Source: Eledone cirrhosa
Lineage: Eukaryota
DNA length: 64,000 bases
Assembly: GCA_964016885.1 (NCBI GenBank)
Contig: OZ024745.1
Span: forward strand, 84,320,001 to 84,384,000
Direction of reading: 5' to 3'
The first letter of the stretch is position 1. Every line of letters starts with the position of its first letter. Positions 1 through 62,631 of this stretch are shown piece after piece. The notes under the pieces are model-generated. The model ran no database searches, had not been told where the DNA came from, and saw only the letters and a program-made list of their open reading frames with translations. The position numbers and the translations under genes were made by a program.

Positions 1-2067
1 AGAAACAGGTTTAGTGCTCTGTGGAGAGTCAGAGGAGAGAGAGATTGGATGGACTGAGGAGAGTGTGACGAGGAGGTACGGGCACTTCACCAATGCAGTG
101 GCGGAAGCAAGTGAAACCCTGGTGCCGAGGAAAAAGAACAAAGGGAAGCACGTCAGCTCTGCAAACCCAAAAGTGTGTGCAGCCAGAGAACACCTGAAAG
201 CTGCCAGGGACCAATTCTATGCTGATCCTACGGAGGAGAGGATGGAGACTGTGGAAGTGATGAGGGAAGAGCTCTGTACCGCTTACACTGAGGTCACAGA
301 GAAGGCACTGATAGAGAAGATCAGAAGTGTGGAGAGAGCGGTTGACAGATCTGGATGTGAGGAGAGCTGGATGATCATCAACGAGATCACAGGGAGGAAG
401 AGAAGATGTTCGAATCAGATCCAGGGAACGGGGCCCGAGGATAGGAAGAGGAAATGGCTAGACCATTTTAGGACCCTACTAGGAGAGCCACCCTCCACAG
501 CCCAGAGCACTGGGGAGATCAGGCGGCTGTTTGAGGAACTGGATGTTGAGTCAGAGCCCTTCATCAGAGAGGAGCTTCAGAGAGCCAAGAAGAGGATCAA
601 GGAGGGCAAGGCTCATGGAGAAGATGGAGTGGCATCAGAGGTGATGAAGAGGTGTGATTCTGATGATATCATCCTGGAGTTCTGTAACGGTCACTGGAGA
701 AAGGAGTTGCCCCGAATCAGTGGAGGATCAGTAACATCGTCCCAGTGCCAAAGAAGGGAGATCTCTCTAACACCAACAACTACCGGAGGATCTCACTGAC
801 GTCACTGTGGCAAAGACCCTCAACAGGATGATTCTTAACAGGATCCAGCCTGAGATGGAGAAGAAGCTCAGGGACAACCAGAACGGCTTCAGAGAGGGTA
901 GATCAACCACCAGTCACATCCTGATGCTGAGGAGGATATTAGAGTGAGCTAGAGCAAAGTGCCTTCCTGCGGTCATGGTTTTAATTGACTTTATGAAGGC
1001 CTTTGATTCTGTGGACCGTTACTGCCTGATGAAGATCTTACAGGCTTATGGAATCCCCAAGAAGATAGTGGACCTGATATCACTGCTCTACACCAACACC
1101 AAAGCCCAAGTCATTACACCTGATGGGATAAAAGAGTTCTTTGAGATACTGGCTGGAGTGCTCCAGGGAGAAACATTGGCTCCCTACCCTTTTATCATCG
1201 TAGTGGACTATTGTAAGCGCCTTGCACTGGAGAAACACGAGGACTCTGGGTTTACTGTAGCACCGGCTCAGAGCAGGAGAGTTAGGGCGAAAAAGGTATC
1301 GGATGCTGAATTTGCCGACGACATAGTTTTGGTGACAAATACAGTGAAGGAGGCAGAGGATTTGATGCGGGAGGTTGAGACTGTGTCGATGAGTGTGGGG
1401 CTGAGAATGAATGAGACTAAAACAAAATATCTGGTAGAGAATGTTGAGAAGCCAGAAGGGATCACTAATGTAGGCGGGAAGAAGCTGGAATTGGTTGAGG
1501 ACTTCCTGTATTTGGGAGCAAAGATTGGGAATACGGAAGATGATGTGGTTGAGAGGAAGAGCAAGGCCTGGGCGGCGTGCCACAGCTTGAGATCGGTGTG
1601 GAAGTCGGACCTTCGTAGAGACCTGAAAATCCGCCTCTTCATTGCTGTAGTGGAGTCTGTGCTGCTGTATGGGTCTGAGACTTGGACACTGACCAAGAAA
1701 CTCACTCAGATGGTGGATGGGTGCTACACGAGAATGCTGAGGATGGCTCTGAACATTAATCAGTATACACTAAGGATGAAATACTCAGAGCTGTATGGGA
1801 GCATCCCAAATGTCAGCTCAAAAGTGACACAGAGGAGACTGAGATTAGCTGGACATGCTCACCGACATCCAGAGTTGACATTGCACTCAGTGCTCCTTTG
1901 GGAGCCCCTACATGGACACACTAGAAGAGGAAGACCAAGGTTAACGTATGTTGATGCCCTAAGGACAGACACTGGTCTGTTGGAGACGCAGGACATGGCA
2001 GCGATAATGAGGGACAGAGACCGCTGGAGAGAACTCGTCCATGGATCTCGGGAATTTTACCCGCCTT

Positions 2068-2069
<2 letters not shown>
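1..2069 (+). mobile_element. RTE-clade non-LTR retrotransposon, disrupted RT ORF, 5' end outside window
   Basis: ORFs 14-799 and 975-2069 plus a shifted frame near 690-810 (IVPVPKKGDLSNTNNYRRISL). RT motifs LIDFMKAFDSV, GVLQGETLAP, EFADD, FLYLG; RTE C-terminus LLYGSETW...RRGRP...DRDRWR. Frameshifts and a TGA near 945. The stop runs straight into (TA)n. Confidence 0.92.
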
Positions 2070-2103
<34 letters not shown>

Positions 2104-2108
<5 letters not shown>

Positions 2109-2626
2109 TAAACGGAAAAGAAAATGCTGACAAATTGTTCCCAGTGAAAAATAGTTTAATTAGGAATAAGTAAAAATTAGTAATAGTATTGGTTAGTATT
2201 CAGTTTTGGTTTTAAGTTTTACCGGTTGCGCATTTCTAATGCTTTTCAAAAATAATTTTGAGATAGAGCGCCCGTGATGTTTGCTCTAATCTGATTAGAT
2301 TTGGAAATTCTACCTGTTTTATGTGAAAAAAATTGCTCCAGATGTATTAAAATAAGTTTCGCGCCAATTCCTGTTGCAAAAACTCTTGTGGTCAAAACAA
2401 TTTTGATTGGTCGGTAGAGGTCATGTGAATGTTAAAAATTGATTTTGCGCCAAATGTAGGTTTGTGTCGGCTGATTGAGAAGTCACTGAAAAATAAGTTT
2501 TTCAAAACAAATATGTGTGTGTGTGTGTGTGTGTAGTAGTAGTAAAGAGGTTCGTTGTTGTGATAATGGTCAGCAGGGATGTGTGTGCGAACCGCAGCCT
2601 GTTGACAGTTAAAATGCCTATTAAGA

Positions 2627-2695
<69 letters not shown>

Positions 2696-3189
2696 CAGAT
2701 GTCTATAGATATAAACGTGCCGACACACACACATACATTAACGTACACATGCATTGCACACTGATGGGCATATACATATTTGTACACAAGTATTCCAATA
2801 CGGCAAGGCCTAATGGATTCCCCTTGCAGTACGTACAATCTGGACACTCACACACACCTTGGTATTATGCCAATACTATATATCATTTCACACCTTTTAT
2901 TATTAAGGTTTTTGATGTTCTATTGAGAGAATCGTTTTTACTGAAAATATCGAATAATGTACACCATTTTTACCAGTATCACAAAATTACTGGTCCACCC
3001 ACACACATATATACACACACACATACACACGCGTACATTAACATACAAAGAGACATACACACACACACACACACACACACTTCTCCGTATAAGACAAGAG
3101 CTGAAAAATATCTTTTAACATGTTAAAATATGCCCCACACACGTACAGACACATTCCTACTGACCATCCCTCTACCACGAATTACTCTG

Positions 3190-3224
<35 letters not shown>

Positions 3225-3725
3225 TCTTAATAGGCATTTGAACTGTCAACAGGCTGCGGTTCGCACACACATCCCTGCTGACCATTATCACAACAACGAA
3301 CCTCTTTACTACTACTACACACACACACACACACATATTTGTTTTGAAAGACTTATTTTTCAGTGACTTCTCAATCAGCCGACACAAACCTACATTTGGC
3401 GCAAAATCAATTTTTAACATTCACATGACCTCTACCGACCAATCAAAATTGTTTTGACCACAAGAATTTTTGCAACACGAATTGGCGCGAAACTTAGTTT
3501 TTTCACATAAAACAGGTAGAATTTCCAAAACTAATCAGATTAGCGCAAACATCACGGGCGCTCTATCTCAAAATTATTTTTGAAAAGCATTAGAAATGCG
3601 CAACCGGTAAAACTTAAAACCAAAGCTGAATACTAACCAATACTATTACTAATTTTTACTTATTCCTAATTAAACTATTTTTCACTGGGAACAATTTGTC
3701 AGTATTTTCTTTTCCGTTTACCAAT
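2104..3725. repeat. Foldback element: inverted arms 2104-2699 and 3186-3725 around a ~490-bp spacer, between (TA)n tracts
   Basis: ATTGGTAAACGGAAAAGAAAAT at 2104 is the reverse complement of ATTTTCTTTTCCGTTTACCAAT ending 3725; arms colinear; one-sided extension 3726-3762. Confidence 0.92.
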
Positions 3726-3759
3726 CTATCATAACTCGTGTGTTACACCCCTATTCTTT

Positions 3760-3791
<32 letters not shown>

Positions 3792-3868
3792 ACGAAGGAA
3801 ATGTGGTAAGGAACCAGGTGGACCATAACGCACCAAAGTACTCAATACTTAGGGTAGTAGAGTGGGTA

Positions 3869-4008
3869 ATAGGAACGAGTAGGACCCCTACGGCTGAGCT
3901 CAAGCCGTCTCGACGGCTAATTCTGGACTAAAAAAAATGAATTTTTTTTTTTAGTCCAGAATTAGCCGTCGAAACGGCTTGAGCTCAGCCGTCGGGGTCC
4001 TACTCGTT

Positions 4009-4013
<5 letters not shown>
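3869..4013. repeat. Short foldback (~70-bp arms) between (TA)n tracts
   Basis: AGGAACGAGTAGGACCCC...GGACTAAAAAAAA mirrored by TTTTTTTTAGTCC...GGGGTCCTACTCGTTCCT; one-sided extension 3791-3868. Confidence 0.9.
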
Positions 4014-4059
<46 letters not shown>

Positions 4060-4061
<2 letters not shown>

Positions 4062-4624
4062 AAAAAATGAAATTTCATTTCTCACTCTTAGTACGGCTGA
4101 TACTTAAATATAAGTATGTATACGTACATACATATATGTATACAGACGTACAGTAGTATGTATATATATACATACATGCACATATATATATATGTACGTA
4201 TGAGTTTACCGAACATTTATTATAATGCTCGGTTTCTTTGTAAACAAACAGTCCGAATTATTAGCCGTACAGTGTTCGGCAACAATCGTTGCCCTTTTGT
4301 TCAACACTGACAAAGGAACGATGAACTAGTTTCTAGCTTATTAGCTATCATCAGCACCGTATACCTTCCTGTCAGTCGTTTGAACGTTTGAAAGTATATA
4401 CTTTCCTTATGCATATTAACGGCTGAGCAGCCTAATTTGCATATCGAGTGAGTTAGTTCGCCGGGTGTACCGAAAACGATAAATGGAAAAAATGAAATCG
4501 TTTACAAACAAACCGTTCGGTAAATGTTCGTAAACCCATACGTACATATATATATGTGTGCATGTATGTATGTATATACATACTACTGTACGTCTGTATA
4601 CATATATGTATGTACGTATATATA

Positions 4625-4630
<6 letters not shown>
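4060..4630 (-). mobile_element. Dispersed copy of the 429-bp hammerhead monomer: full monomer on - (4060-4497) plus inverted partial copy (4500-4630), inside (TA)n
   Basis: Clear homology to the 52818-62575 array unit; terminal redundancy GGAAAAAATGAAA at both monomer ends. Confidence 0.92.
4318..4360 (-). ncRNA. Type I hammerhead ribozyme
   Basis: Minus strand: acggtg CTGATGA tagct-aata-agcta GAAA ctag TT catcgt; stems I and II pair, stem III palindromic. Confidence 0.88.
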
Positions 4631-4691
<61 letters not shown>

Positions 4692-5133
4692 GTAATCTGA
4701 GTGTTTCGAATATTAATAATAACATTCGATTCGTTTGCAATTATGCAAACAAACCTCAATTTTATAGCCATGTCAATAGAATGAACCCTTCATTCTTGCT
4801 CTTGTGTTGGCATGCGAACTCTAATGTTTCTGGTATCATCCTTCATCACTGTTCACCTGCCAAACTGTCAGAGCTAGTGAAAATATATGCTCTTTTCAAA
4901 AATACACAGTGACTGATCGGCCTGATTTGCATATTAGCAGACTGGCTGATCAGTCAGATCTTCATATTAGTAGATCCACTGATCAGCCAGATTTGTATAT
5001 CAGCAGACTGGCCAGTCAGTTTCCTGTATAAGAGCGATAAATGACCTGCTTTGCCAAATTCAAATAAAAAAAAATTTCGTTCTACATGGCTGAATACAAT
5101 AAATATAATCTGAGTTTTTCGAATATTAATAAT

Positions 5134-5321
5134 TGTTTCTACGTTTGGCACAAGGCCAGCAATTATCCAAGTGTATTACTGGTACTTTATTTTATCGACC
5201 CCGTAAGGATGAAAGGCAAAGTTAATCTCGGCGGGATTTGAACTCAGACCATAAAGGGCCGTAACTCTTTGCTACACAGAATGGTGTCCGACCCTCTACT
5301 GATACTGCCAATCCACCGCCC
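5134..5321 (-). mobile_element. tRNA-derived SINE with 16-bp TSD
   Basis: A-box-like TGGCAGTATC, B box GAGTTCAAATCC, core ACTTTGCCTTTCATCCTTACGGGGTCGATAAAATAAAGTACCAG; TSD TTCGAATATTAATAAT at 5118-5133 and 5322-5337. Confidence 0.92.
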
Positions 5322-5564
5322 TTCGAATATTAATAATGACATTCGATTCGTTTGCAATTATGCAAACAGGCCTCAATTTTATAGCCCCCGCTGGAGATTT
5401 TTTCCCTTCGATTTTTATGGAATTTAAACCATAGGTAAATGACAAGTTATGATGCCTATTCACAAAAGTTTTGAACTGATATTTTGAAAACAATATTTAC
5501 AAGAAACAAAATAAGAATAAGATTTGATAATCTAATTTTGATTTGATATATTACAAAAAATAAT

Positions 5565-5749
5565 TGTTTCTACTTTAGGCACAAGGCCAGCAATTACCAG
5601 TGCATTACTGGTACTTTATTTTATCGACCCCGTAAGGATGAAAGGCAAAGTCAATCTCGGCGGGATTTGAACTCAGATGGTAAAGGGACGTAACTATGCT
5701 GGAAAGCATGGCGTCCGACCCTCTACCGATACTGCCAATCCACCGCCCT
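5565..5749 (-). mobile_element. tRNA-derived SINE with 16-bp TSD
   Basis: Same family; TSD TATTACAAAAAATAAT at 5549-5564 and 5750-5765. Confidence 0.92.
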
Positions 5750-6799
5750 TATTACAAAAAATAATGTTTTCCAATTTTTCATGCATTACATTTTACATTG
5801 AGTAATATTGAAATGCAGAGTTTTTCTCCATAAATTATATCACTAATTTAAAATCAATCATCATTTTCTTACAAAAAAAAATGTGTGAAACGCAGCAAAG
5901 CGCTGGTAATTCGGCTAGTATATATATATATATTGGGAAATAGGTGAGATCCTTTGTACAGTTAGGTATATTTGAAAAAAAGGAAAAGAATGACTTCACT
6001 TGTATTCTTAAAAAATTTTTATTTAATTTTATATTATAATATTATGAGTTGGTAAATCTAGTAAGTTCTTTGTTAACTTCGGTGGGAAGAATTTGTAGAT
6101 TCCTGGTTAACTCGTCCGTGGCGATTGACAAACTGAGATCAGGTTGTGTTGAAATGTGTGACTATATATAAGAGAGATTTGGATGTGTTTGGGGTGTCGG
6201 GTGTGGTGTTAATGCGTGTTGATGATGATGAAGGTCCGGAGGAATTAAAGCATACATACACACACACGTACACACACACACACACATAAACACACACACA
6301 TACAGACACTCAGAAAATGGTGAGGTTGCAAGATAAAGGTGTTTGAGAAGGTGGCTGTAAACATCCTCTCCTGCTGGTTTTATTTCATTAGCTGACCTTT
6401 GATGAATATATAATGGCATAGCTGAATCAACTCTTCCAAATCCATGTTGATCAGAGGTAAATAATGTATTGGAGATCGAGTGACTCAACTTCAAGCGATT
6501 AGCGATATGTATATTGTGTTTGTGTGAAGGCATGCATGTATCAGTATGTGTATATTTGTGTATGTATGTGTCTGTGATAGTGCCAAAGAGAAAAAAGGAA
6601 AAGGTCAGAAAGATAAGCTGAACAAGAGGAAGGAGAGTAAAACAATATATATTAGGTTAAAGATACATGAATTGAATTGCCGTACGAGAATTTAATTGAA
6701 ATTTACTTCTGAGGTGGAGAAGAAAGAAAAACTAGATGCAATTTTAGCGGCTATCAAAGAATTATTCATAACTGCATTTTTATATGGAAAGATTTATCA

Positions 6800-9755
6800 G
6801 CCCGAGTAGTTAGAGTGCTAGAATCGCTCCCGTCAGTTGTCAAGTCATAGCGAGTTAAACGTCGAGCGGGGTAACATCGCCCCTCCCACACCTATTGCAA
6901 ACAACAGCGCCTCATTGGGCAGTATCGCCAACAGCAGCACCAACAACAAAACAACGACAATAGCAACACCAACAACCGCAGCAAAAACGACAACAACACC
7001 AACAACAATAGCAACAATGACAACACCAACAACAACATGAACAACGACAACACTATCAGCAACAATGAAAAGCAGCAAAACAGCAGCACTAAAAAGAACA
7101 ACAACAGCAGCAACAACAACATGAACAGGATGACCTTCTCAACCACAGCGGCAAAGAGTCAGTGGTATAATTTTAATATTTCATAGGGAGAAGAAACTTT
7201 ATTGTTGTATCAGATGAAAGAATGGTATTTAACTAATGTATTGGTACGCGATCGGGCCCACCCACAGCCCCGGCGGACAGAATGGAGAAGGCGTTTCCCC
7301 GGAGGACGGCAAGGGAGACGCGCTGGAAAAGCCACTCCAACTCGCGGGGCTCATACCTGTGGCTGGCCAGCTCAGCGCTTATGGTGGAGAGTAAGGAGGT
7401 AGCCCTGGGGCCGAGGACACCAGAAGTTTCCACTGCCAGGGGAACGACCGCAAACCTATCGGAGAGCGACCGGTATTTGAGGAGTTTGGCCCCCTCAGCC
7501 CAACGTGCAGCAGAACCTGGGTCAGTTGCAGACTGCACCAGGTTGCGGCTGCAGAAAGTGTCGGTGCAAGTGGCATCCCAGACGAGGGGTTTGCCACCGC
7601 GGAACGGGAAGATGGTCATGCCATCTGGCCTTTTGCCGTCCCCTCGATCCAGCTCCACAGATTTAACAGAAAAAAAATGAACGTTTGGCCCAGGCGGAAA
7701 TATTTATAACTAGAGAAAAGACCAGGGCCAACTTAAACGTCCCGGCAGAGGTGATGGCAGCAAAGAAGATGAGAATACTGAAATATAGATGCATTTCAGT
7801 AAAATCTCGAAAAGCCCGTTGCACTGTTTTGTTTGTGGTGATGCAAGACACCTGCAAGCCTTTTGCCCCCTGCTGAAGACTACAGGCGGCTACAAACCTC
7901 CGTTACTGCCAAGACCGGTGCTGGGACAAAATACAACACCAGCAGCAAGCAGCAGCAGCAACAGTAAAGGAAACAGCACCACCAGCAACAACACCGACAA
8001 GGACCTTTAAAAGCACCCATGGAGTCGTCCAAACAAGCTCTCCATCTCCTCTTCTTTCAAACACACAGACATAGACCAATTGTTACACTTCCGTAAACAC
8101 ACGACCACTCCCCTCTGACACAGAGTCCCCAAGCACCATACTCAAGGGAAGATGAGGGGGAAATCCAAAAAGCAAAAATAACAAAAATGAAAACACAAAA
8201 AAAAAACAGTTCATCTTCACACACACCAACAACCACACTAAATACACCCATAACAAACACAGACACACCTATAACACCAACACTACAGCCGTCAACAAAA
8301 GCACAGCCACCAACAACAACACCGACGCAACCACATATCATGCCCCCCAAAAGAAAACACACGCAGACACGAACAACGACAGAAATACCCAAATTCATTT
8401 AACTAAGAAAGGCCAACAAAAGACTTATGGTCTTTGTAACACGAAATCAAGACATTGAGAAAGAGGGGAAGATTTTTAGCTCCTGCACCTTCCAAGTGCC
8501 CCAAACACTGCTGATGGTACGGATGTCAATAAACACCTACAAAAATATTACGGAGAGCTTCTCCGACTACATGGGAACCCCTAATGTGAAACCACGAGAA
8601 GGCTTTTAAAGGGGTTCCCAGTGGAAACCCCACCAACCATGGAGGTTGAAACACCCGACATCTACAAGCCCCTACGAGGTAAGTAAACTTTTCCTCTTTC
8701 TTTTAGCCTACCAACATGCCATTCCTCAGAGTAGGATCTCCTTGAAAAGTTCTACTGCATCTATCAGCAGAACTGTAGGTATTCTGCCTAAATGGTGAAT
8801 ATGTGTGATCGCCGTTTGTGAGACGAGCCTTTCCATAGCTCGTCTTTTTGACTGAGCTGCAGTCCTGTGTCAAGAAGAAACCGGGACTGGGCACCTGGTA
8901 TCTGGAATGTTGTCTGGTGCTCACTGCCCTCTACCAGGCGGACAATATGGTCAGTGGAACTTTCACTCTCGAGTTCTAAGAGGATTAGTGGTGGGCAAGT
9001 ACGACGACGCACTCGGAGAGGCTCTTGACGTCGACTAAGTCGAACTGACGAGGCTGTTCTGGAGGACTTTCGAGTCGGTGACTGGATAACTTCCAGAAAT
9101 ACCTCGTTTAGCAGTGATACAGGGGGGCACTGCCGGTTCAAGATAAACACTACAGGCACAGAAGTGCTATCAGCCGGACCTGCTCGAGATGCACGCAGAA
9201 CGACGAAACTGTTCTGCACGCACTCGTCCATTGTCCGTGCATTGCTGACTTGTGGAGAAATGTCAAACAGCTGTCGTCGCGTGTAGAACGGATCCGACTA
9301 TCGACCGAGTCTATAGTAAAGATAGCCTCGTCGCCTTCTTTTGACCGGGGAGGACAGGCAATTTTCCTCTGTCTGGTAGAGGTAGGGAAAGAGGTTGTGT
9401 GGTGGACCAGGTTGAAAGGGCTGAAGACAGCCACTTTTCTCTTCGGCCAATCGCTCATAAAGTTTTTCAATTTTCACTTGGAAAGGAAGGTGAGGGTGGA
9501 GAGAGAAATGTTACCCCCCACCCCAGTTCATTTGCTAAAAGATGGGTGAATGTCGGGTAGTTCAGGATTGGTTGGGTACCTGATTCGCCTCTGGATGGTT
9601 ATAACCCCTTATTGGGGAATTTTCATTGTTGTATTTTTCTTGTTATTTTGACATTGTTATTTATATTGTTTACACGTTTATTTATGTAAAAGCCGCACTG
9701 TCCCTGTCTCTGTATTGTACTCTATATGTCGGCCCTTGTCGCCAATAAATGAAAC
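6800..9755 (+). mobile_element. Internally deleted L1/Tx1-like LINE (ORF1 zinc knuckle plus ORF2 C-terminus)
   Basis: CCHC knuckle CFVCGDARHLQAFC near 7825-7867. Frame from 9118 reads YRGALPVQD...TCSRCTQNDETVLHALVHCPCIADLW (zf-RVT-like), continuing into ORF 9250-9549. T-rich 3' UTR and AATAAA near 9744. No APE/RT core seen; 5' boundary approximate. Confidence 0.72.
7160..7660 (-). mobile_element. 3' fragment of a CRE-like non-LTR retrotransposon (restriction-like endonuclease domain)
   Basis: ORF 7233-7658: DGKRPDGMTIFPFRGGKPLVWDATCTDT...AKLLKY...PLAVETSGVLGP...LFQRVSLAVLRGNA, the RPD/D...K..KY/E signature of RLE domains. Confidence 0.85.
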
Positions 9756-9757
9756 AC

Positions 9758-9975
9758 GGGTAGTGAATTGGCAGTATCGGTAGAGCGCCAGACACCATGC
9801 TTCGTTGCATAGAGCTATGGTCCTTTACATTCTGAGTTCAAATCCCGCCGAGGTTAGCTTTGCCTTTTATCCTTACGGGGTCGATAAATAAAACACCAGA
9901 AATACACTGGGGTCGATTTAATAGACTTCCCCGCCCTTCAAATTGCTGGCCTTGTGCCTAAATCAGAAATCATTA
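9758..9975 (+). mobile_element. tRNA-derived SINE
   Basis: TGGCAGTATCGG, GAGTTCAAATCCCGCCGAGG and family core. Confidence 0.9.
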
Positions 9976-10247
9976 TTATTCTTATTATTATATAATTGAC
10001 TGTCGAATTGGGGTACCCGCTACCAGTGATAAGTGTTTAAAAAATATATAATTTGTTAAATTACTGAATGTGCGGCATCCGCTTTACATTTATTTCGCTG
10101 AATATAGAACAACTCAGTTTTCCAGACGTTCCACCATACTTGAAAAACCAAACAGTTCGAAGCTATTTCCTATATGGCAAATATAGTGCATCGTCTAAGT
10201 AACGTAAATAATATGCTGTATTTTCAATAGTTTAATACATTATTTAT

Positions 10248-10432
10248 GCGGTGGATTGGCAGTATCGGTAGAGGGTCGGACGCCATGCTTTGCAGCAAAG
10301 AGTTACGGCCCTTTATGGTTTGAGTTCAAATCCCGCCGAGGTTAACTTTGCCTTTCAGCATTACGGGGTCGATAAAGTACCAGTAATACACTGGAATAAT
10401 TGCTGGCCTTGTGCCAAAAGTAGAAACAATTA
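10248..10432 (+). mobile_element. tRNA-derived SINE
   Basis: Same family motifs. Confidence 0.9.
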
Positions 10433-10520
10433 TTTATATACTGTTCTATATTTTTGAGACGAGTAATTATTTACATTATATACATTGGACGGATAGTTGT
10501 CCTCATCTTGTTTTGTTGTT

Positions 10521-10566
10521 AACACAACGTTTCGGTTGATATACTCTCCAGTCTTCATCAGGTGTT
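10521..10566 (-). ncRNA. Minimal type I hammerhead ribozyme
   Basis: Minus strand: aacac CTGATGA agactg-gagagtatat-caacc GAAA cg TT gtgtt; stem I 5 bp, stem II partly decayed. Confidence 0.7.
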
Positions 10567-10792
10567 GTTATTATTAGCGTTTGTTCAGGTCACTGCCTAG
10601 AGTTGTACTCGGAATCTTGAGGTTGTAGCCCGCTTTTTAAGTGTAGCCACTTTTTTTTCTTCTTCTCGAGAAAACAAAAAATTCACGAGAAGAAGAAAGA
10701 AAAGGTGATTAAAAAGCGGGCTACTAACCTCAAGATTCCGAGTACAATTCTAGGCAGTAACCTGAACAAACGTTAATAACAACATCACTGGG

Positions 10793-10837
10793 ACACCTGA
10801 TGAAGGCTGGAGAGTACATCAGCCGAAACGTTGTATT
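10793..10837 (+). ncRNA. Minimal type I hammerhead ribozyme
   Basis: acac CTGATGA a-ggctg-gagagtacat-cagcc GAAA cg TT gtatt; stem II 5 bp, stem I partly decayed. Confidence 0.72.
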
Positions 10838-11408
10838 AACAGCAAAACAAGATGAGGACACCTATCCGTCCAATGTATATAATTATGTATGTGTGTGTGA
10901 GCGTGTGTGCTCGTGTGTGTTAATATCCTGTGCATGTTCGCATGATTAAGAGAAGCCATCACATTCCAAGTTACTGTCCGCATCCAATAGATTCTAATCT
11001 GTAATATGAGACGGTTCTCATATTCTGGAAAGAGTTACCACTCTGTCATAAGAACATCAAATAATCATGCATGGCCAGATATTGAAATAGCCTATTTACT
11101 CCGCCATCTTGAATTATTATATAGCCGGGATGCATAGCATATTATATTTCTATGAAAGACAATGTTGTACAGAAAACACAATGGAGTGGCGTTTGACAGA
11201 AAGCCTGCTGCAATGTTTGTGCATACAATAATGTACACATACACAGATCATAGAATATTGCAGGCGCACATTCACACTATACGATAATACATACATACAC
11301 GCATACACATACATCACACAATAACGCGCATACACATACGCGCACCACACAATAAAGCGCACATACACACACACTGACAATAGTCAACAGAGAGTAAGTT
11401 CCAGTGAT

Positions 11409-11471
<63 letters not shown>

Positions 11472-11474
<3 letters not shown>

Positions 11475-11569
11475 GGTGTCCCAAATATTGTATACATACT
11501 TTGATTACCTGTAAAAGCAATATTTATTAGAATGCTGATGAAGCGTGTATACATTTTTGGGGACATCTG
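11472..11569. mobile_element. Tc1/mariner-type MITE (~100 bp)
   Basis: Imperfect TIRs AGGGTGTCCCAAATATTGTATAC / GTATACATTTTTGGGGACATCTG in TA context; partial second copy near 63130-63205. Confidence 0.65.
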
Positions 11570-11695
11570 TATATATATATATATAGTAATAATAATAAAT
11601 TTGAAGACTAAAATCCAAAGAGGGCTCGATAAGGATAAATATATATCAGATATATAAGAACCGTAGAGTAAATATTTATTAAAATAACAGATTAA

Positions 11696-11746
11696 AGTTT
11701 AAGCAAAGAATCGCTGCTTTCACCCTTAACGGGTTCTTCTGAAACT
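11696..11746 (-). ncRNA. Hammerhead ribozyme with full stem III and one core substitution (CAGAAGA)
   Basis: Minus strand: agttt CAGAAGA accc-gttaa-gggt GAAA gca-gcgattctt-tgc TT aaact; all three stems pair. Confidence 0.65.
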
Positions 11747-12349
11747 AAAAAAGTCAATCTGTGAACGCAGAAGTAAATATTTCAAAAACCGTTGCAACCG
11801 AAAGAAGACAGGAAGACGATACTTTGGTTCGTGGAAACGTTCCCTGGCAAAGAACGGGAAAAAAACGAAGATAATGCGTCATTATTTGGTGCAGTGAAAA
11901 AACGCGAAGACAAAACCACGTTTATCGTATAAATGAAGTCGTAGACTAATATTCTATTAGGTGGTTCATGGAGACGTTCTCTGGCAATGAACGGAAAAAA
12001 CGATAATACGTCATTATGTGGAGCAATGAAAACAATTACACGCAAAGACAAAACCACGTATAACTGAAGTCGTAGACTAAAATTCTATTTAGGAAACCGA
12101 ATGATTCTCGGCTTCAGAGTTAAGAATAAAGTAAATAAAATACAGAGGTTATTGAAATCATTTATATACATACACACATCCATATACGTACATACACAAG
12201 CATACGCGAAACCACTCCCCATGGGTATGCAAATACAAGCACGTACACACAAAGAAAAACACATACACACGCACATACAGAACCCAGACAACGCCTGTGC
12301 CGCACACATACGAACGTATACACCAAATACACATGAAAAAATAAATAAA

Positions 12350-44611: not shown

Positions 44612-44650
44612 TCGAACGCGCAACCAGACAGCACCTAAGAAAATATCAAC

Positions 44651-47600
44651 ATGGACATGTCACAAACGACAGAGGCCGAGATTTCAGAGCTGCGGGCTAT
44701 GATCAGAGAGCGGGCTGGTCAAATTAAAGCCCTCTCGAATCAAGTAGAGAACTTGACTTTTCAAATACACCGGCGACGCAGCAACAGTCGATCCAAGCCT
44801 TTTCACAGTCGAAGATCCAGTAGTCCCAGTCAAAATCGTGTGCCTGGCAACCTCTGCTGGTATCACACAAATTTCGGCGCACAGGCATTTAAGTGCAAAG
44901 CCCTGTGCTCTTTCCGGAATGCCACCCAGGGCCTGGCGACGACGTTCACCCCTGGTACTGAAAAGAAAATTCGTCTATTTTTTATTAACGACCAGGCGAC
45001 AGGCATCCGTTACCTCGTGGATACAGAAGCCCAGGTTAGTGTTATTCCTGTTTCACTAATCTCGGGCAAAAGACACCCAACCCCGTCCTTTCTGCAGGCA
45101 GTGAACCAATCGTCAATTCCGACTTTCGGGGAGAAGTCTCTGACCCTCAATTTAGGCCTGAGGCGGCATTATCAATGGGTGTTTGTCGTGGCAGACCTGC
45201 CGACCCCTATCCTAGGAGCCGATTTTCTCCACCACTTCAACCTTCTGGTGGATATGAAGAACCGGAGGCTTATTGATACCACCACAAACCTCACTGTGAG
45301 AGGTATATTTACCACGAATCCACAGTGGGCCCTGTAATTTCCCAGTCAGAGCCTTCGCGGTACAACGGCATTCTCCAGAAATACCCAGACATCACTCGCC
45401 CGGTATTTAAGGATGGTCCTATTAAGCATAGTGTCACGCACCACATCGAGACAAAGGGACCACCCACAGCTGCCCGACCAAGGAGACTGCCTCCAGACCG
45501 ATTGAGAATCGCCAAGCAGGAGTTCCAACACATGCTGGACCTCGGAATCATTCGCCCTTCCTCCTAGCAACTGGTCTGCACCCCTACACCTTGTTCCAAA
45601 AAAAAAACGAGAATAATTGGCGACCATGTGGGGATTATCGTGCACTTAACAATTCTACAGTGCCCGATAATTACCCTTTACCTCACCTGCACGATTTTTC
45701 CGCCTCTCTGCAAGGCGCACGTATCTTTTCCAAGGTAGATTTGGTGCGTGCATATAACCAGATACCTATGGAGCCTGCAGACATTCCGAAGACCGCAGTC
45801 ACAACACCGTTCGGTTTATTCGAATTTCTGCGAATGCCGTTCGGTCTGCGCAACGCTGCACAAACTTTTCAGCAGTTTATTGACACCGTGTTACGCGGTC
45901 TACCCTTCGTATATGCGTATATTGAAGACGTGCTGGTAGCAAGTACTTCCGAGCATGAACATGAGAAGCACTTAGATCTCCTTTTCCAACATTTGGCTGA
46001 GTACGGTATCATCATCAACCCTAGCAAGTGCCTTCTCGGCGTTCCTTCACTGTCCTTTCTCGGGCACATCATCGATAAAGACGGCATTCGTCCACTTCCC
46101 GAGAAAGTAGAAGCTATCCGCAGTTTTCCCGCACCTACATCACTTCGGAAACAGCGTGAATTCCTCGGTCTGGTGAATTTTTATAGGCGGTTTATCCCTC
46201 ATTGTTCCGACGCAGCCAGACTCCTCACGGACCTTCTTCGTAACCGGACTCGCAAAAACGAAGAGATCACTCTAAACGAGGAAGAATTAACATCTTTTAA
46301 CCGCCTGAAGGAAATGTTGGCAAACGCTTCCATGCTCGTTTTCCCCAGGTCTGGCGCTCCCCTTTCGCTGCTAGTGGACGCATCAGACACGGGGGTTGGA
46401 GGCGTTCTACATGTCGACGGCGTGTGGCAACATGTCGACAGCGTGTGGCAAGCCTCGTCCTTCTTTTCTAAGCGGTTGCAACCGGCAGAAACGAAATACA
46501 GTACCTTTGGCCGCGAACTCTTGGCAACCTATCTTTCGGTTTAGAATTTTCGGCACATGCTCGAAGGATCAGATTTCGTGATCTACACGGACCATAAACC
46601 ATTAATTTATGCGTTCCGTACTAAACCTGATCGACATTCACCGAGAGAACTCCGACACCTGGATTTTGTCTCCCAATATTCAACTGATATTCGGCATATC
46701 AAGGGATCAGACAACGTAGCAGCCGACGCCCTGTCCCGAATCCAGCTGAACGCAATACATGTGCATTCAGGCATCGACCTTCAACAGATCGCAGCTGAAC
46801 AAGAGACTGACGAAGAGTTTATCAAGCTCCGAGATTCGCCATCCCTCAAGTTTCAGCAAGTTCCCATTCCTTCTTCTCCGGGACAAATTTGGTGCGACCT
46901 TTCTACCGGTCATGAACAACCGTACGTACCACAGATGCATCGTCGACAAGTTTTTTCTGCTTTACACTGCTTGTCTCATCCGGGAATCCGGGCTACACAG
47001 AAACTCATCTCTGCTCGTGGTGTGTGGACTAACATTAACAAGGACGTGCGCGACTGGTCCAGGAGCTGCATTGCCTGCCAGAAAGCCAAAGTCCACAGAC
47101 ACATCAAAACTCCACTCGGCACATTCGCGCAACCTGATGCACGTTTTCATCATGTGCATATCGACTTCGTCGGACCGCTACCACCATCACAGAACTACAC
47201 ACATTTGCTCACCTGCATAGATCGATTTTCTCGTTGGCCTGAGGCTTTTCCCATAAATGATACCTCAGCGGAAACAGTCGCTAAAACTTTGGTTTTACAC
47301 TGGGTATCACGTTATGGCGCCCCAGCGAAGATAACAACGGACAGAGGACGCCAATTTGACTCCCACCTCTTCAGGGAACTGACTCGCCTGTTAGGATGTA
47401 AACACATCCGCACGACAGCTTATCACCCGCAAGCTAATGGTCTCGTGGAAAGATCCCATCGTCAATTGAAAGCTGCAATAAAAGCATATCCAGACAAGAC
47501 CCACTGGTTTGAATACCTACCACTCATCCTTCTGGGCATTCGATCCACCGTTAAAGAGGAATTCGGACACACACCTGCAGAATTAGTGTACGGCGCACCA

Positions 47601-48061
47601 CCCTGGTCCTACCTGGTCAGATGGTTGCTCCCATCTCTCCTCAGGATGTTCCAGACCCAGGATCATACGTACACCGTCTTCGACAATATATGTCTCACCT
47701 TGCTCCTGCAAGCACCCGTCAACAGAACACAGCCACACACGTACCTTCAGACATTAAAGATTGGACACACGTTTTCGTTCGAAACGACACCATCTCAGCT
47801 CATCTCCGACCTCCATATTCTGGCCCTTATCGTGTTCTAAAAAAATATCCGAAATATTTTATTCTCGATCTAGATGGTAAACAGAATTCTGTCAGCGTGG
47901 ACAGATTAAAAAAAGCCATCATGGATACTGTTACAGTCTCTACACCAGAAACTCCAACAGATTGCTGTCCCAGCGAGCCACCTGTTTCATCTCCAGTCAC
48001 GAGAAGCGGACGACGCGTCCATTGGCCCGCCAAGTTGGCACAATATGTGAATTACCGGTAA
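44651..48061 (+). pseudogene. gag-pol pseudogene (Gag C-terminus, protease, RT, RNase H, integrase)
   Basis: CWYHTNFGAQAFKCKALC; protease LVDTEAQVS (DTG altered); [31 protein letters not shown] (YIDD altered); [12 protein letters not shown]; IN H..SHPG...[40 protein letters not shown]. Stops and frameshifts near 45320, 45567, 46544, 47600. Confidence 0.95.
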
Positions 48062-48234
48062 CCACAAGTGAGTTTCTTAATCATTCTTCGTGCAAAACAT
48101 TTCCATTTTTCTTGTGTTTAGTATTTCTAGTTTCAAATACAATGAACTTTCTGCTTGAACAATTGCAATTTTTAGTGACCATGTGCTCATGTCACGAAGA
48201 ACATTATTTATAATGAACATTATTTATTACATAC

Positions 48235-48419
48235 AGGGCGGTGAATTGGCAGTATCGGTAGAGAGTTGGATTATGCTTTCCAGCATAGTTACGTCCCTTT
48301 ACGATCTGAGTTCAATTCCCGCCGAGGTTAACTTTGCCTTTCATCCTTACGGGGTCGATAAAATAAAGTACCAGTAATGTACTGGGATAAGTGCTGGCCT
48401 GTGCCAAAAAGTAGAAACA
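48235..48419 (+). mobile_element. SINE inserted in the Gypsy 3' region, 16-bp TSD
   Basis: TSD ATTATTTATTACATAC at 48219-48234 and 48420-48435. Confidence 0.92.
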
Positions 48420-49190
48420 ATTATTTATTACATACTCTATTTAAGAACAAACATTGTGTATATCATTGTGTATAACATTTTTTTTTCTTCACTCTCTTGT
48501 TTTGCAAAAATTTATATTTTTCTTGTTCTGTAACATTGATTGTGTAATTGCCATAATTTTTATATACATACAAGGCGTGTACATATCCTATTTTTCATGC
48601 ACACTCCAAAACCACGTTTGTTTCACCTTTTAGTTCATACACTGAGCAATAGATATTTGTGTCCCTCTAACTCTTACACTACAAAATGTTTTCTCTTTGA
48701 TCACGCATTTCACAAATCACAGCCTCAAAACACTGGCCTTCTTTTTTCACGTACACATTCACTCAATAGCTCGAGAATGCCTCGCTATTTTTTTTACCAC
48801 ATGCATTCGCTCAAGTCATATGCTGTGGAGCAAACTGTTACTTTTAGGCAGCATGCTTACGGCCATTCAGTTCACGCATAAGGTTATCTTCACTGCCCAG
48901 TTAGACTGTTTGTCACGCAATTCACAGGCAGCTCAACCCAAATTGCAACAGGCACATTCATCACGCCTGCATAAATCTGGTCAAAATCATTTCATAGTTT
49001 ATTTCTTTTTTCTCTTCCTGACACACACATCTTGCCATATCATCTCTACATCGACTCTGTCCTGTACTCGATGATCACAAAATTTCACAACGCGCTGGAC
49101 ACTCCTGGGGCTATTGTCATGACAATTACTGGCCCATAACTATACGATATTTCGCTCTTTTGTTGTACAAAAGATCTGGCAGGGGGATAA

Positions 49191-50636
<1,446 letters not shown>

Positions 50637-50839
50637 GTGTGTGTGTATATATACATATATATATACATATATATATATATTTATATATATACCTATATAT
50701 CTACATCAACATATATAGAAAACACACACACGTATATATATATATATACATAATTCTACATCATATCTACATAAATATCTACATAAATATCTACATAAAT
50801 ATATATATATATAGACAACACAGACGTATATATATATAC

Positions 50840-50878
<39 letters not shown>

Positions 50879-50906
50879 GATAGATAGAGAGAGAGAGAGA
50901 GAGAGC

Positions 50907-50969
<63 letters not shown>

Positions 50970-51099
50970 GTTTAAATGAAGAAGCATTAGGAAAATTAAA
51001 TATTGTGTGCTTCCTACCGCAAATGACCATAACAAGAGTCGATCATAATAAAGAGACAGGCGCACGGGTACTTAACACGTTTCCTCAACCACTATTTAT

Positions 51100-51237
51100 A
51101 ATTGTTTCTACTTTTGGCACAAGGCCAGCAATTATCCCAGTGCATTACTGGTACTTTATTTTATCGACCCCGTATGGAGGAAAGGCAAAGTTAACCTAGT
51201 CGGGATTTGAACTCAGAATGGCAAGGGCCGTAACTCT
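51100..51237 (-). mobile_element. 5'-truncated SINE
   Basis: Family core. Confidence 0.88.
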
Positions 51238-51362
51238 ATTTATAATGAGTGGCTATTAGTAAAGTCATCAGCATTGGGACGCGCACATTTCATATGTACA
51301 CTTGTATATATATACGCACACATATATATATATATAAACACACATTTATATATATGCATGTG

Positions 51363-51420
<58 letters not shown>

Positions 51421-51489
51421 TGATATATATATATATACACACATTTATATATATGTATGTGTATACACACATTTATATATATGTATGTG

Positions 51490-51526
<37 letters not shown>

Positions 51527-51578
51527 TTTATATATATGTATGTGTATTATATATCTATATATATATGTATATATATAT

Positions 51579-51672
<94 letters not shown>

Positions 51673-51768
51673 CATATATAGATATATAATACACATACAT
51701 ATATATAAATGTGTGCGTATATATATATATATATATATAATACACATACATATATATAAATACATTCA

Positions 51769-51803
<35 letters not shown>

Positions 51804-51805
51804 AA

Positions 51806-51954
51806 ATTATTTCTGAAGACGGCATATATATGTGTTTGGTATGTATATTTAATTTTGATAGTTTGTATAATTTTGTATAATTTTGTACATAGATCTGTTG
51901 AATATGCATGCCAATTCTAACACATATATATCCTAGAAACGATCGTTAAATAAT
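51806..51954 (+). ncRNA. Type I hammerhead ribozyme with a very long stem II
   Basis: attattt CTGAAGA cggc-atatatatgtgtt-tggtatgtatatt...aatatgcatgcca-attct-aacacatatatat-ccta GAAA cgatcg TT aaataat; insert between (TA)n tracts. Confidence 0.8.
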
Positions 51955-52148
51955 GAACTTTTTTGTTTAATATAAGGAACTGTTTCATTGTTTTTCATTA
52001 TTTTTTTAATATTTTATCTTGACTCTGTATTCCGTTTATCTTTCACCGAAAGTGATTTTTCATTGCATCTCTTCTTTCCATGATATCCGGATTACATTGA
52101 GTTCTTCATACGGATTGGACACTACCGTAAACTCTTGGTAGATTTATC

Positions 52149-52299
<151 letters not shown>

Positions 52300-52387
52300 T
52301 TATATATATTTATATATTTATATATTTATATATCTGAAAGACGGAAAATAAGAAAATTATAAAAATTAGATTATGTACTAAAATTTC

Positions 52388-52470
52388 ACTCCAACTAATT
52401 AGTTTCTGAAAGGGAATAAACATGGTTTCCGAATGGAACACGTGGGGAAGGCCTTTCGTCATCAGGAAGT
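52388..52470 (-). ncRNA. Type I hammerhead ribozyme
   Basis: Minus strand: acttc CTGATGA c-gaaagg-(~35 nt)-cctttc-a GAAA ctaattag TT ggagt; palindromic stem III. Confidence 0.8.
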
Positions 52471-52817
52471 CTATTCTCGGCAAAGTTCCCAGGCGATGCG
52501 TGGACACAGGGAACTTATACAAAAATAATTCAGTGGATGGAAAAAAGCAAGCGTGGACTAAATTCCAAGACATTGACAAAATCACTGCCTACTTGGTCGG
52601 TGGCAAATTCAAAAGAATCAATCACGTGACATCGAGGTTAATCAGTGAGGAGTGGGGTGTTAAGAAGACAGTCGAGTAGGTATGCATCTGTATATATATG
52701 TTGGTAGATATACTAATTCTTTATAATTATCTCCAAATTATTTTGTTGAGCAAACATTTGCCAAAACTTTACTATAGTTCATAGTAATAGTTCGGCTACT
52801 GTCTTCTTAACGCCCAC

Positions 52818-53464
52818 TGTACGTATGGATTCACCGAACATTTATTATAATGCTCCATATGTTTGTAAGCAAACATCCCTATTAAGATGTAGTGTCCAGC
52901 AACCATCGTTGCTCGTTTGTTCAACACTGAGCAAGGAACGCTGTAGTAGTTTCAAACTTCTTAGCTATCGTCATCAACGTATACCTTCCTGCCAGATTGT
53001 TGAACGTATATACTTACCTTATACATATTAACGACTGAGTAGCCCAATTTGCATATCGAGTGGGTTAATCGGCCGGCTGCATCGAAAACGATAAACGGAA
53101 ATACTGAATAGAAATTTCATTTCCCACTATTAGTACGGCTGTTACTTAAATATAAGTATGTATGCGTACATACATATATGTATACAGACGTACAGTAGTA
53201 TGTATATATATATACATGCATGCACACATATATATATGTACGTATGGATTCACCGAACATTTATTATGATGCTAGGTGTGTTTGTAAATAAACATCCCGT
53301 ATTAAGTCGTAGTGTCTAGCAACCACCGTTGCTCGTTTGTTCAACACTGACACAGGAACGCTATACTAGTTTCAAGCTTATTAGCTATCGTCAGCAACGT
53401 ATACCATCCTGCCAGATGATTGAACATCCGAAAGTATATACATTCATTATGCATATTAACGGCT
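52818..53464 (-). repeat. Inverted ~1.5 monomers of the 429-bp unit at the array's left edge
   Basis: Reverse complement of the unit; intact core TCGTCAG at 53388-53394, decayed core near 52968. Confidence 0.92.
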
Positions 53465-53477
53465 TAATAAGGGATGG

Positions 53478-56400
53478 TTGTCAGTGTTGAACAAACGAGC
53501 AACGGTGGTTGCTAGACACTACGGCTTAATACGGGATGTTTGTTTACAAACACACCGAGCATTATAATAAATGCTCGGTGAATCCATACGTACATATATA
53601 TATGTGTGCATGTATATATATATATATACATACTACTGTACGTCTTTATACATATATGTATCTACGTATACATACTTATATTTAAGTAACAGCCGTACTA
53701 AGAGTGGGAAATGAAATTTAGTTTCACTTTTTCCGTTTATCGTTTTCGGTGCACCCGGCCGATTAACCCACTCGATATGCAAATAGGGCTACTCGGCCGT
53801 TAATATGCATAAGGAAAGTATATACTTTCGGATGTTCAATCATCTGGCAGGATGGTATACGTTGCTGACGATAGCTAATAAGCTTGAAACTAGTACAGCG
53901 TCCCTTTGTCAGTGTTGAACAAATGAGCAACGGTGGTTGCTAGACACTACGGCTTAATACGGGATGTTTGTTTACAAACACACCGAGCATTATAATAAAT
54001 GCTCGGTGAATCCATACGTACATATATATATGTGTGCATGTATATATATATATATATACATACTACTGTACGTCTGTATACATATATGTATGTACGTATA
54101 CATACTTATATATAAGTAACAGCCGTACTAAGAGTGGGAAATGAAATTTGGTTTCATTTTTCCGTTTATCGTTTTCGGTGCACTCGGTCGATTAACCCAC
54201 TTGATATGCAAATTGGGCTACTCAGCCGTTAATATGCATAAGGAACGTATATTATTTCGGACGTTCAATCAGCTGGCAGGATGGTATACGTTGCTGACGA
54301 TAGCTAATAAGCTTGAAACTAGTACAGCGTCCCTTTGTCAGTGTTGAACAAATGAGCAACGGTGGTTGCTAGACACTACGGCTTAATACGGGATGTTTGT
54401 TTACAAACACACTGAGAATTATAATAAATGTTCAGTGAATCAGCACGTACTTATATATATATGCCTGCATGTATGTATATATATAGACATACTACTGTGC
54501 GTCTGTATACATATATGTATGTACGTATACATACTTATATTTAAGTAACTGCCGTACTAAGAGTGGGAAATGAAATTTCGTTTCTTTTTTCCGTTTATCG
54601 TTTTCGGTGCACTCGGCCGATTAACCCACTTGATATGCAAATTAGGCTACTCAACCGTTAATATGCATAAGGAAACTATATACTTTCGGACATTCAATCA
54701 TCTGGCAGGAAGGTATACGTGCTAACGATAGCTAATAAGCTTGAAACTAGTACAGCGTTCCTTTGTCAGTGTTGAACAAACGAGCGACGGTGGTTTGCTA
54801 GACACTACAGCTTAATACGGGATGTTTGTTTACAAACACACCGAGCTTTATGATAAATGTTCGGTGAATCCATACGTACATATATATATATGTGTGCATG
54901 TATGTATATATACATACATACTACTGTACGTCTGTATACATATATGTATTTACATATACATACTTATAATTAAGTAACAGCCGTACTAAGAGTGGGAAAT
55001 GAAATTTTGTTTCTTTTTTCCGTTTATCGTTTTCGGTGCACTCGGTCGATTAACCCACTTGATATGCACATTAGGCTACTCAACCGTTAATATGCATAAG
55101 GAACTATATACTTTCGGACGTTCAATCATCTGGCAGGATGGTATACGTTGCTGAAGATAGCTAATAAGCTTGAAACTAGTACAGCGTTCCTTTGTCAGTG
55201 TTGAACAAACGAGCGACGGTGGTTTGCTAGACACTACAGCTTAATACGGGATGTTTGTTTACAAACACACCGAGCTTTATAATAAATGTTCGGTGAATCC
55301 ATACGTATATATGTGTGTGCATGTATGTATATATACATACATACTACTGTACGTCTGTATACATATATGTATGTACGTATACATACTTATATTTAAGTAA
55401 CAGCCGTACTAAGAGTGGGAAATGAAATTTCGTTTCTTTTTTCCGTTTATCGTTTTCGGTGCACTCGGCCGATTAACCCACTTGATATGCAAATTAGGCT
55501 ACTCAACCGTTAATATGCATAAGGAAACTATATACTTTCGGACGTTCAATCATATGCCAGGAAGGTATACGTTGCTGACGATAGGTAATAAGCTTGAAAC
55601 TAGTACAGCGTTCCTTTGTCAGTGTTGAACAAACGAGCAACGGTGGTTGCTAGACACTACGGCTTAATACGGGATGTTTGTTTACAAACACAGCGAGTAT
55701 TATAATAAATGTTCGGTGAATCCATACGTAAATATATATATATATGTGTGCATGTATGTATATATATATACATTCTACTGTACGTCTGTATACATATATG
55801 TATGTACGTATACATACTTATCTTTAAGTAACAGTCGTAATAAGAGTGGGAAATTAAATTTAGTTTAATTTTTTCAATTTATCGTTTTCGGTGCACCCGG
55901 CCGATTAACCCACTCGATGTGCAAATTAGGCTACTCAGCCGTTAATATGCATAAGGAAACTATATACTTTCGGACGTTCAATCATCTGGCAGGAAGGTAT
56001 ACGTGCTAACGATAGCTAATAAGCTTGAAACTAGTACAGCGTTCCTTTGTCAGTGTTGAACAAACGAGCAACGGTGGTTACTTGACACTGCGGCTTAATA
56101 CGGGATGTTTATTCACAAACACAGCGAGCATTATGATAAATGTTCGGTCAATCCATACGTACGTATATATATATGTGTGCATGTATGTATATATATATAC
56201 ATACTACTGTGCGTCTGTATACATATATGTATGTACGTATACATACTTATATTTAAGTAACAGCCGTACTAAGAGTGGGAAATGAAATTTGGTTTCATTT
56301 TTCCGTTTATCGTTTTCGGTGCACTCGGTCGATTAACCCACTTGATATGCAAATTGAGCTACTCAGCCGTTAATATGAATAAGGAAACTATATGCTTTCG

Positions 56401-62400: not shown

Positions 62401-62575
62401 TATATACTTTCGGACGTTCAATTATCTGGCAGGAAGGTATACGTTGCTGACGATAGCTAATAAGCTTGAAACTAGTACAGCGTTCCTTTGTCAGTGTTGA
62501 ACATACGAGCAACGGTGGTTGCTAGACACTACGGCGTAATACGGGATGTCTGTTTACAAACACACCGAGAATTAT
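53478..62575 (+). repeat. Head-to-tail array of ~21 monomers of ~429 bp, one hammerhead position per monomer (retrozyme/satellite-like)
   Basis: Cores near 53865, 54294, 54722, 55151, 55575, 56006, 56435, 56862, 57289, 57719, 58149, 58582, 59013, 59444, 59875, 60306, 60734, 61164, 61590, 62017, 62447; mean spacing ~429. Confidence 0.96.
53859..53901 (+). ncRNA. Representative array hammerhead ribozyme (type I)
   Basis: acgttg CTGACGA t-agct-aata-agct-t GAAA ctag TA cagcgt; stem I can extend via ctggca/tgtcag across an internal bulge; GUA cleavage triplet. Confidence 0.9.
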
Positions 62576-62576
62576 C

Positions 62577-62631
62577 TGTTAGAACACGAAAAGTGTGAAA
62601 CAACAGAATGTTCACTTTTCGTGTTCTAACA
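62577..62631. repeat. Perfect 19-bp inverted repeat directly after the array end
   Basis: TGTTAGAACACGAAAAGTG (62577-62595) / CACTTTTCGTGTTCTAACA (62613-62631). Confidence 0.9.

Follow-up and report, generated by a model that had tools for sequence, protein, structure and literature searches.

Does a single hammerhead-bearing repeat unit, lying some distance from a tandem array of related units, reveal how such units move and whether their ribozyme is under selection? The unit occupies positions 4060–4630 of the window, the whole 64,000-nt stretch of DNA that was analysed (G000:C5:84,320,001-84,384,000; assembly size 3.0 Gb). A sequence-only reading had described it as a single diverged monomer with terminal redundancy between (TA)n tracts, and had taken it to indicate retro-mobility and selection on ribozyme structure. 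Its setting is as that reading had it: the copy lies on the minus strand, 48 kb from the array (start 52818) and between one (TA)n tract at 4011–4059, the target at the main arm's 3′-end, and another at 4630–4688, at the 3′-end of an inverted arm. The monomer itself spans only 4060–4499 (minus strand), a main arm that goes once round a 425-bp unit (subfamily A), overlaps itself by 16 nt and is 5′-truncated within the tail of the preceding turn; the remaining 4500–4630 (plus strand) is a second arm, inverted, 5′-truncated and head to head with the first, that ends without a tail at the other of the family's two fixed ends. The 3′ tail of the main arm (4058–4108, minus strand), ~50 nt of the next unit's start, marks the first of these ends. 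The terminal redundancy is real, a 16-nt overlap at 4483–4498 (minus strand) that directly matches 4058–4073; its letters recur in every array unit as internal unit sequence, which rules out a target-site duplication, and since 3′-ends in the family are fixed while 5′-ends are scattered, it is best read as the tail overlapping the arm's chance stopping point. No open reading frame of ≥150 aa covers the focal copy or the array, and GC content is 33–37% in 2-kb bins around the copy. A candidate octamer, ATGCAAAT (4435–4442, minus strand), is present in all three subfamily consensuses and intact in 27/29 subfamily A and 14/16 subfamily B copies; it is a possible internal promoter element.

Within the main arm, a type I hammerhead with an extended helix I is called at 4307–4377 (minus strand). 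As Rfam returned no hits at gathering thresholds, the evidence for it is the match to the consensus pattern together with the predicted fold; helices I–III and the 11 core bases are supported by the pattern and by pair counts. On the minus strand, helix I pairs 4360–4355 with 4323–4318, the core comprises 4354–4348 and 4333–4330, helix II spans 4347–4334, and helix III, of 2 bp, lies in the palindromic ACUAGU at 4330–4325. The predicted cut falls after U17 of a GUU triplet (4324), and GUU triplets are cut more slowly than GUA or GUC. Compared against shuffled sequences, the focal ribozyme folds well (z −3.28) and that of an array unit weakly (z −1.32, 20/200 shuffles as good); helix III is absent from the minimum-energy folds of both. 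The letters previously reported are correct: helix I reads ACGGTG/CATCGT in the focal copy versus ACGTTG/CAGCGT in the array, N7 is T versus C, the cleavage base H17 is T versus A, pair 10.1-11.1 at the base of stem II is T-A versus T.T, and all 11 invariant core bases of the focal copy are intact. Most of these differences are subfamily states, the closed stem II being the exception.

Genome-wide searches place the copy in a retrozyme family that is real, mobile and very abundant. A 30-place type I core pattern had 27,265 exact matches in the genome and none in a reversed control, so chance does not account for them, and searching by DNA similarity yielded 3,495 first-look candidates, among which 40 scored places across many contigs were 94–100% identical. 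The description as a lone diverged copy consequently falls away: the copy is dispersed, has two arms and is an unremarkable representative of a minor subfamily (A, ~915 core matches). The family comprises at least four subfamilies, with young copies among them and unit lengths of 425–502 bp. In a tree of 59 rows, midpoint-rooted, with six disputed ribozyme positions masked and truncated copies left out, the focal copy falls in clade A (100/96) and four sampled array units in clade B, the array type (subfamily B) also being found dispersed. In a second organism (run X4), 4,383 contigs match window positions 4200–4500, with depth highest over the ribozyme and subfamily-A-like states dominating; only 47, 9 and 4 contigs match in runs X5, X8 and X9. 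The family either predates or crossed the split from the second organism.

To describe how copies are inserted, we mapped the first 100 pattern matches on contig C1 (its first 21 Mb), which resolve into 57 sites, 29 of them with units in both orientations; no LTR-like layout was seen among the mapped sites. Their 3′-ends fall at two fixed points, either the unit end or ~50–59 nt into the next unit (a tail), and are followed by TA after 38/42 tail ends and 11/13 no-tail ends (49/55 in all), compared to 134/1,140 random flank positions. Their 5′-ends are scattered, with 3/68 within 10 nt of the cut site in a sample in which core-less copies are under-represented. Among head-to-head pairs, 28/32 combine one tail end with one no-tail end (p = 2e-5; 102 loci, of which 8 are without a call, the end-caller missing some subfamily-C tails), and the focal copy likewise has one arm of each kind. 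Because the paired arms end at two different fixed sites, this pattern suggests double priming on one RNA, and we regard the two-fixed-end rule as the part of the family most worth following. At site 20, nine tandem units differ by 0.4%, against a median of 6.0% to other sites, and at site 8 seven rare variants are common to both arms; a homogeneous multimer template would also fit, since the nearest units at other sites (0.6%) are almost as close to those of site 20 as these are to one another. Retro-mobility, as originally proposed, is thus borne out by thousands of dispersed copies, 5′-truncation, inversions, fixed 3′-ends and TA targets, although the argument draws on the genome-wide pattern and not on the focal copy, whose subfamily is not that of the array.

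The genome also holds candidate enzymes. A search for GIY-YIG endonuclease domains gave 10,596 first-look candidates, of which 150 were scored; each of three tested frames encodes an intact reverse transcriptase (RT) with a C-terminal GIY-YIG domain, 14 of the 20 longest frames contain a Neptune-type Cys linker, and several Penelope-like families end on (TA)n. The retrozyme unit is not itself an autonomous Penelope-like member, because an RT + GIY-YIG frame is absent from it. Among 50 GIY-YIG loci (30 + 20), none was an autonomous element with the focal unit as its terminal repeat; the unit is present in two of them, behind a (TA)n tract in both. Conversely, a tblastn search of 20 frames against 130 unit-bearing sequences gave 15 hits, all to neighbouring Penelope-like copies; the six inspected are separate insertions, with a TA tract between them and the unit in five cases and additional sequence too in the sixth (L004).

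The reading that we favour, and consider probable, is that the family is a non-coding hammerhead repeat placed in TA microsatellites by a Neptune-type RT + GIY-YIG endonuclease acting in trans; we infer mobilisation in trans because such frames exist in the genome while none of the 50 loci owns the unit. By analogy with described retrozymes (PMC7229834, PMC4209133), tandem source loci would be transcribed, with the candidate octamer as a start; hammerheads, probably paired as dimers by way of their palindromic helix III, would release unit-length RNA, which would likely be circularised. The borrowed enzyme would then nick (TA)n and prime cDNA from each DNA end at its own fixed site, the two sites lying ~55 nt apart; synthesis of either cDNA would break off at a random point, and the two would be joined head to head. 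A single template, likely a circle, would fit both the near-identical young tandems and the rare variants common to both arms, and conservation of the ribozyme would be confined to the few source loci making the transposing RNA, with inserted copies left to drift. More tentatively, the Neptune-type enzyme may prime one circular RNA at two sites from both TA-cut ends and roll round it. If true, one mechanism would account for the tail at a single end, the inversion of head-to-head arms, the overlap of the termini and arrays that are tandem from the outset, the seed of the ~60-kb satellite included, and Penelope-type integration would become directly testable in this family.

The sequence-only reading had seen in helix I a pair flipped from U-G to G-U by two changes. 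Pair I.3 is U-G at 25 of the 57 C1 sites, G-U at 23, A-U at 5, U.U at 2 and C-G at 1, with one deletion artefact. On the phylogeny, U-G is found within clade B alone (except for the one C-G copy), G-U occurs in several other clades, and a U.U copy (L107) is the sister of clade B. The flip is one event between source lineages, likely in the array lineage and through a mismatch, and the tree favours the reverse of the direction proposed, G-U to U-G, an order that depends on the midpoint root. What looks like a neat compensatory change on comparing two copies may thus go back to a single ancestral event between subfamilies and not to selection on the copy. Covariation, offered earlier as the check on structural selection, was scored across 26 distinct ribozymes: pairing is present in 97% of cells and the covariation score exceeds 500/500 shuffles, in a control that ignores relatedness, with a core pattern that fixed helices II and III and with 9/34 distinct C1 sequences, those with broken arms, left out of the set. 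Change on both sides of a pair is seen in only 2/22 pairs, a number matched by 269/500 shuffles. In the second organism, position 1.3 shifts to C in 59% and 2.3 to A in 40%, complementary but unphased shares.

Between the consensuses of subfamilies A and B, 2/35 core and stem positions differ versus 29/263 others, a non-significant difference; when subfamily C is included the proportions become 2/35 versus 64/258 (p = 0.009), subfamily C having been found by a pattern that fixes 23 of those 35 positions. Core positions are identical in the three consensuses, partly through the same ascertainment. Inserted copies showed no sign of selection on the ribozyme by a singleton test: in subfamily A singleton mutations fall at 11/899 ribozyme versus 71/6,739 other sites (p = 0.61), and the inside–outside comparison gave p = 0.83 for dispersed subfamily B copies and p = 0.49 for the array. 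The full closure of stem II, correctly observed as T-A against T.T in the array, is a rare state and not a conserved one, since pair 10.1-11.1 is U.U at 53/57 C1 sites and, within subfamily A, C.A in 98/100 and closed in 2/100 of the first listed matches; C.A also stands at the stem II base in 23/29 best hits of the focal copy, in which closure is one of nine private changes from the subfamily majority in 298 nt. Structural constraint on the ribozyme is likely in the source lineages, and selection on its structure, claimed at first for the unit in general, is plausible for those lineages only.

An unlikely alternative is that uncut linear multimers are moved by Penelope machinery, the hammerhead being weak or vestigial and its apparent conservation a product of youth and ascertainment. 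The weak helix II base (U.U or C.A), the 2-bp helix III, the GUU triplet of subfamily A and 5′-ends that are not concentrated around the cut site, in the under-sampled set given above, are all compatible with such a history, as is the retention of all 11 core bases in only 13/22 array units; in Xenopus, 8/9 retrozyme dimers did not cleave in the available account of that work (bioRxiv 10.64898/2026.07.22.740005). The alternative sits poorly with a pair I.3 that switches between G-U, U-G and A-U with only two U.U among 57 sites, with the complementary, unphased shifts of partner letters in the second organism, and with the lack of core differences among three consensuses against 64/258 elsewhere, ascertainment contributing to the last.

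Copies could also be 5′-truncated pseudo-LTRs from an autonomous Penelope-like element that has so far escaped detection, a possibility that we consider quite improbable. Their end structure is that of Penelope-like elements, and a coding element has left a fold-back 3′ fragment of this kind nearby, at 2106–3762. In the mapped loci, however, the sequence upstream of the unit is a further unit, an arm in inverted orientation or flank unrelated to it; pure-unit tandems reach nine units at young sites, and no TA-free junction with a coding body occurs in the 130 unit-bearing sequences or the 50 GIY-YIG loci.

As for the nearby array, it opens with an inverted start arm (52818–53477, minus strand, ~1.5 units of subfamily B), the same type of inversion as in the focal insertion, and continues as 429-bp subfamily B units (53478–62575, plus strand). 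Interrupted at 62575, it resumes near C5:84,386,100 and ends at a no-tail site and (TA)n near G000:C5:84,433,785, for a total of ~60 kb, of which the part beyond the window is traced by two fetched stretches and by match positions, with continuity assumed between them. Its units differ by 7.3% among themselves and by 7.5% from dispersed copies, so the array is not homogenised; four apparent G.G units are misaligned one-base deletions and were excluded from mismatch counts. Over 298 nt the focal copy is 95.0–97.0% identical to its 29 dispersed best hits versus 80.5–85.3% to 22 array units, which sets it in a separate subfamily. No collinear homology was found between the flanks of the focal copy (1–4010 and 4691–12000) and those of the array (45001–52817 and 62576–64000), only 14 scattered matches of 36–217 bp on both strands, with none from the left flank. 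Segmental duplication, which would have undermined the earlier argument for mobility, is hence excluded as the source of the copy, and clade and identity likewise exclude descent from the array. That the monomer came from the array, or with it by segmental duplication or DNA recombination, its own ribozyme being under selection, is accordingly very improbable, for although the family recurs within 48 kb and the predicted fold of the focal ribozyme is stronger than that of the array, the flanks, clade and identities disagree and stem II closure is just one of the nine private changes.

The window contains several further repeats. The fragment at 2106–3762, (TA)n-bounded and made of an inverted part (2106–2693) and a direct part (2698–3762), derives from a coding Penelope-like family (L127; 86–92% identical) and contains a decayed U3-A8-type hammerhead near 3583–3610. 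Between TA tracts at 3791–4013 lies a short fold-back element, a palindrome (3869–4013) with ~80 nt on one side, with a tail on one arm as in retrozyme insertions; copies of it stand in at least 14 of the fetched loci, frequently directly after a retrozyme end (L004, L014, L022). Together with the monomer, these form three Penelope-style insertions at successive TA tracts. Elsewhere in the genome, several Neptune-type families (L121, L124, L085 and relatives) have intact frames of up to 938 aa between stops and carry hammerheads themselves, in which helix III is palindromic (CCGG or GTAC); two families have the U3-A8 core variant. Other hammerhead-core matches in the window (10569, 10789, 18281, 20413, 36219, 37389 and 38093) belong to other repeat families, several as opposite-strand pairs. 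Named by eye, a 373-aa non-LTR reverse transcriptase frame (948–2069) ends at a (TA)n tract and Gypsy-like LTR retrotransposon frames (protease, RT, integrase) span 44639–48061; a 33-bp triple repeat at 4913–5012 contains octamer-like ATTTGCAT sites.

In its sequence-level features the family is one of animal non-LTR retrozymes. Like those described in the available text of Cervera and de la Pena (2020; PMC7229834), it is a short AT-rich tandem repeat whose every unit bears a type I hammerhead; it lacks an ORF, has copy numbers in the tens of thousands and co-exists with Penelope-like elements. Its U.U helix II base is also described there for axolotl HHR_Amex2. Its units, at 425–502 bp, are at or above the 150–450 bp range given there; cleavage and circles are shown for those retrozymes, whereas the Eledone family is known here from its DNA, and the text available to us makes no mention of TA targeting or two-armed insertions. 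With known minimal hammerheads it shares a short helix III, a palindromic loop, proposed action as dimers and close opposite-strand pairs, differing in a canonical 6-bp helix I with distal extension in place of 4–5 bp. Li, Clavereau and Pollet (2026; bioRxiv 10.64898/2026.07.22.740005), in the part available, argue that retrozymes of the non-LTR kind are non-autonomous Penelope derivatives, and their retrozymes likewise occur as dispersed monomers, read as offspring of active loci, beside multimer arrays. Of the at least two consecutive intact units by which they define an active locus, the focal copy, a solo monomer with a single ribozyme, has one, and the array and many other sites have two or more. 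Their Xenopus retrozymes are tied by homology to named pLTRs, whereas no parent pLTR was found here, and their sampling as described is without molluscs. EN+ Penelope-like elements of the Neptune clade, as described in the accessible portion of PMC8557442, show the same 5′-truncation, partial tandems, adjacent inverted 5′-truncated copy, tail at one end only and microsatellite bias; unlike them, the present unit has no RT or endonuclease and forms tandems of pure units, with a tail of ~50–59 nt versus 30–40 bp. In searches of the open literature, we found no paper on this family or on two-site priming.

The value of the family lies in what it may reveal about movement. Its more than 27,000 ribozyme cores form a large data set on how non-coding hammerhead repeats move, and they bear on how Penelope-type enzymes make tandem and inverted insertions, a question open in the literature, in which an in vitro system for Penelope-type integration has been called for (Craig et al. 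2021, PMC8557442, as far as its available text goes). Furthermore, the family shows a route from a two-armed insertion to a satellite.
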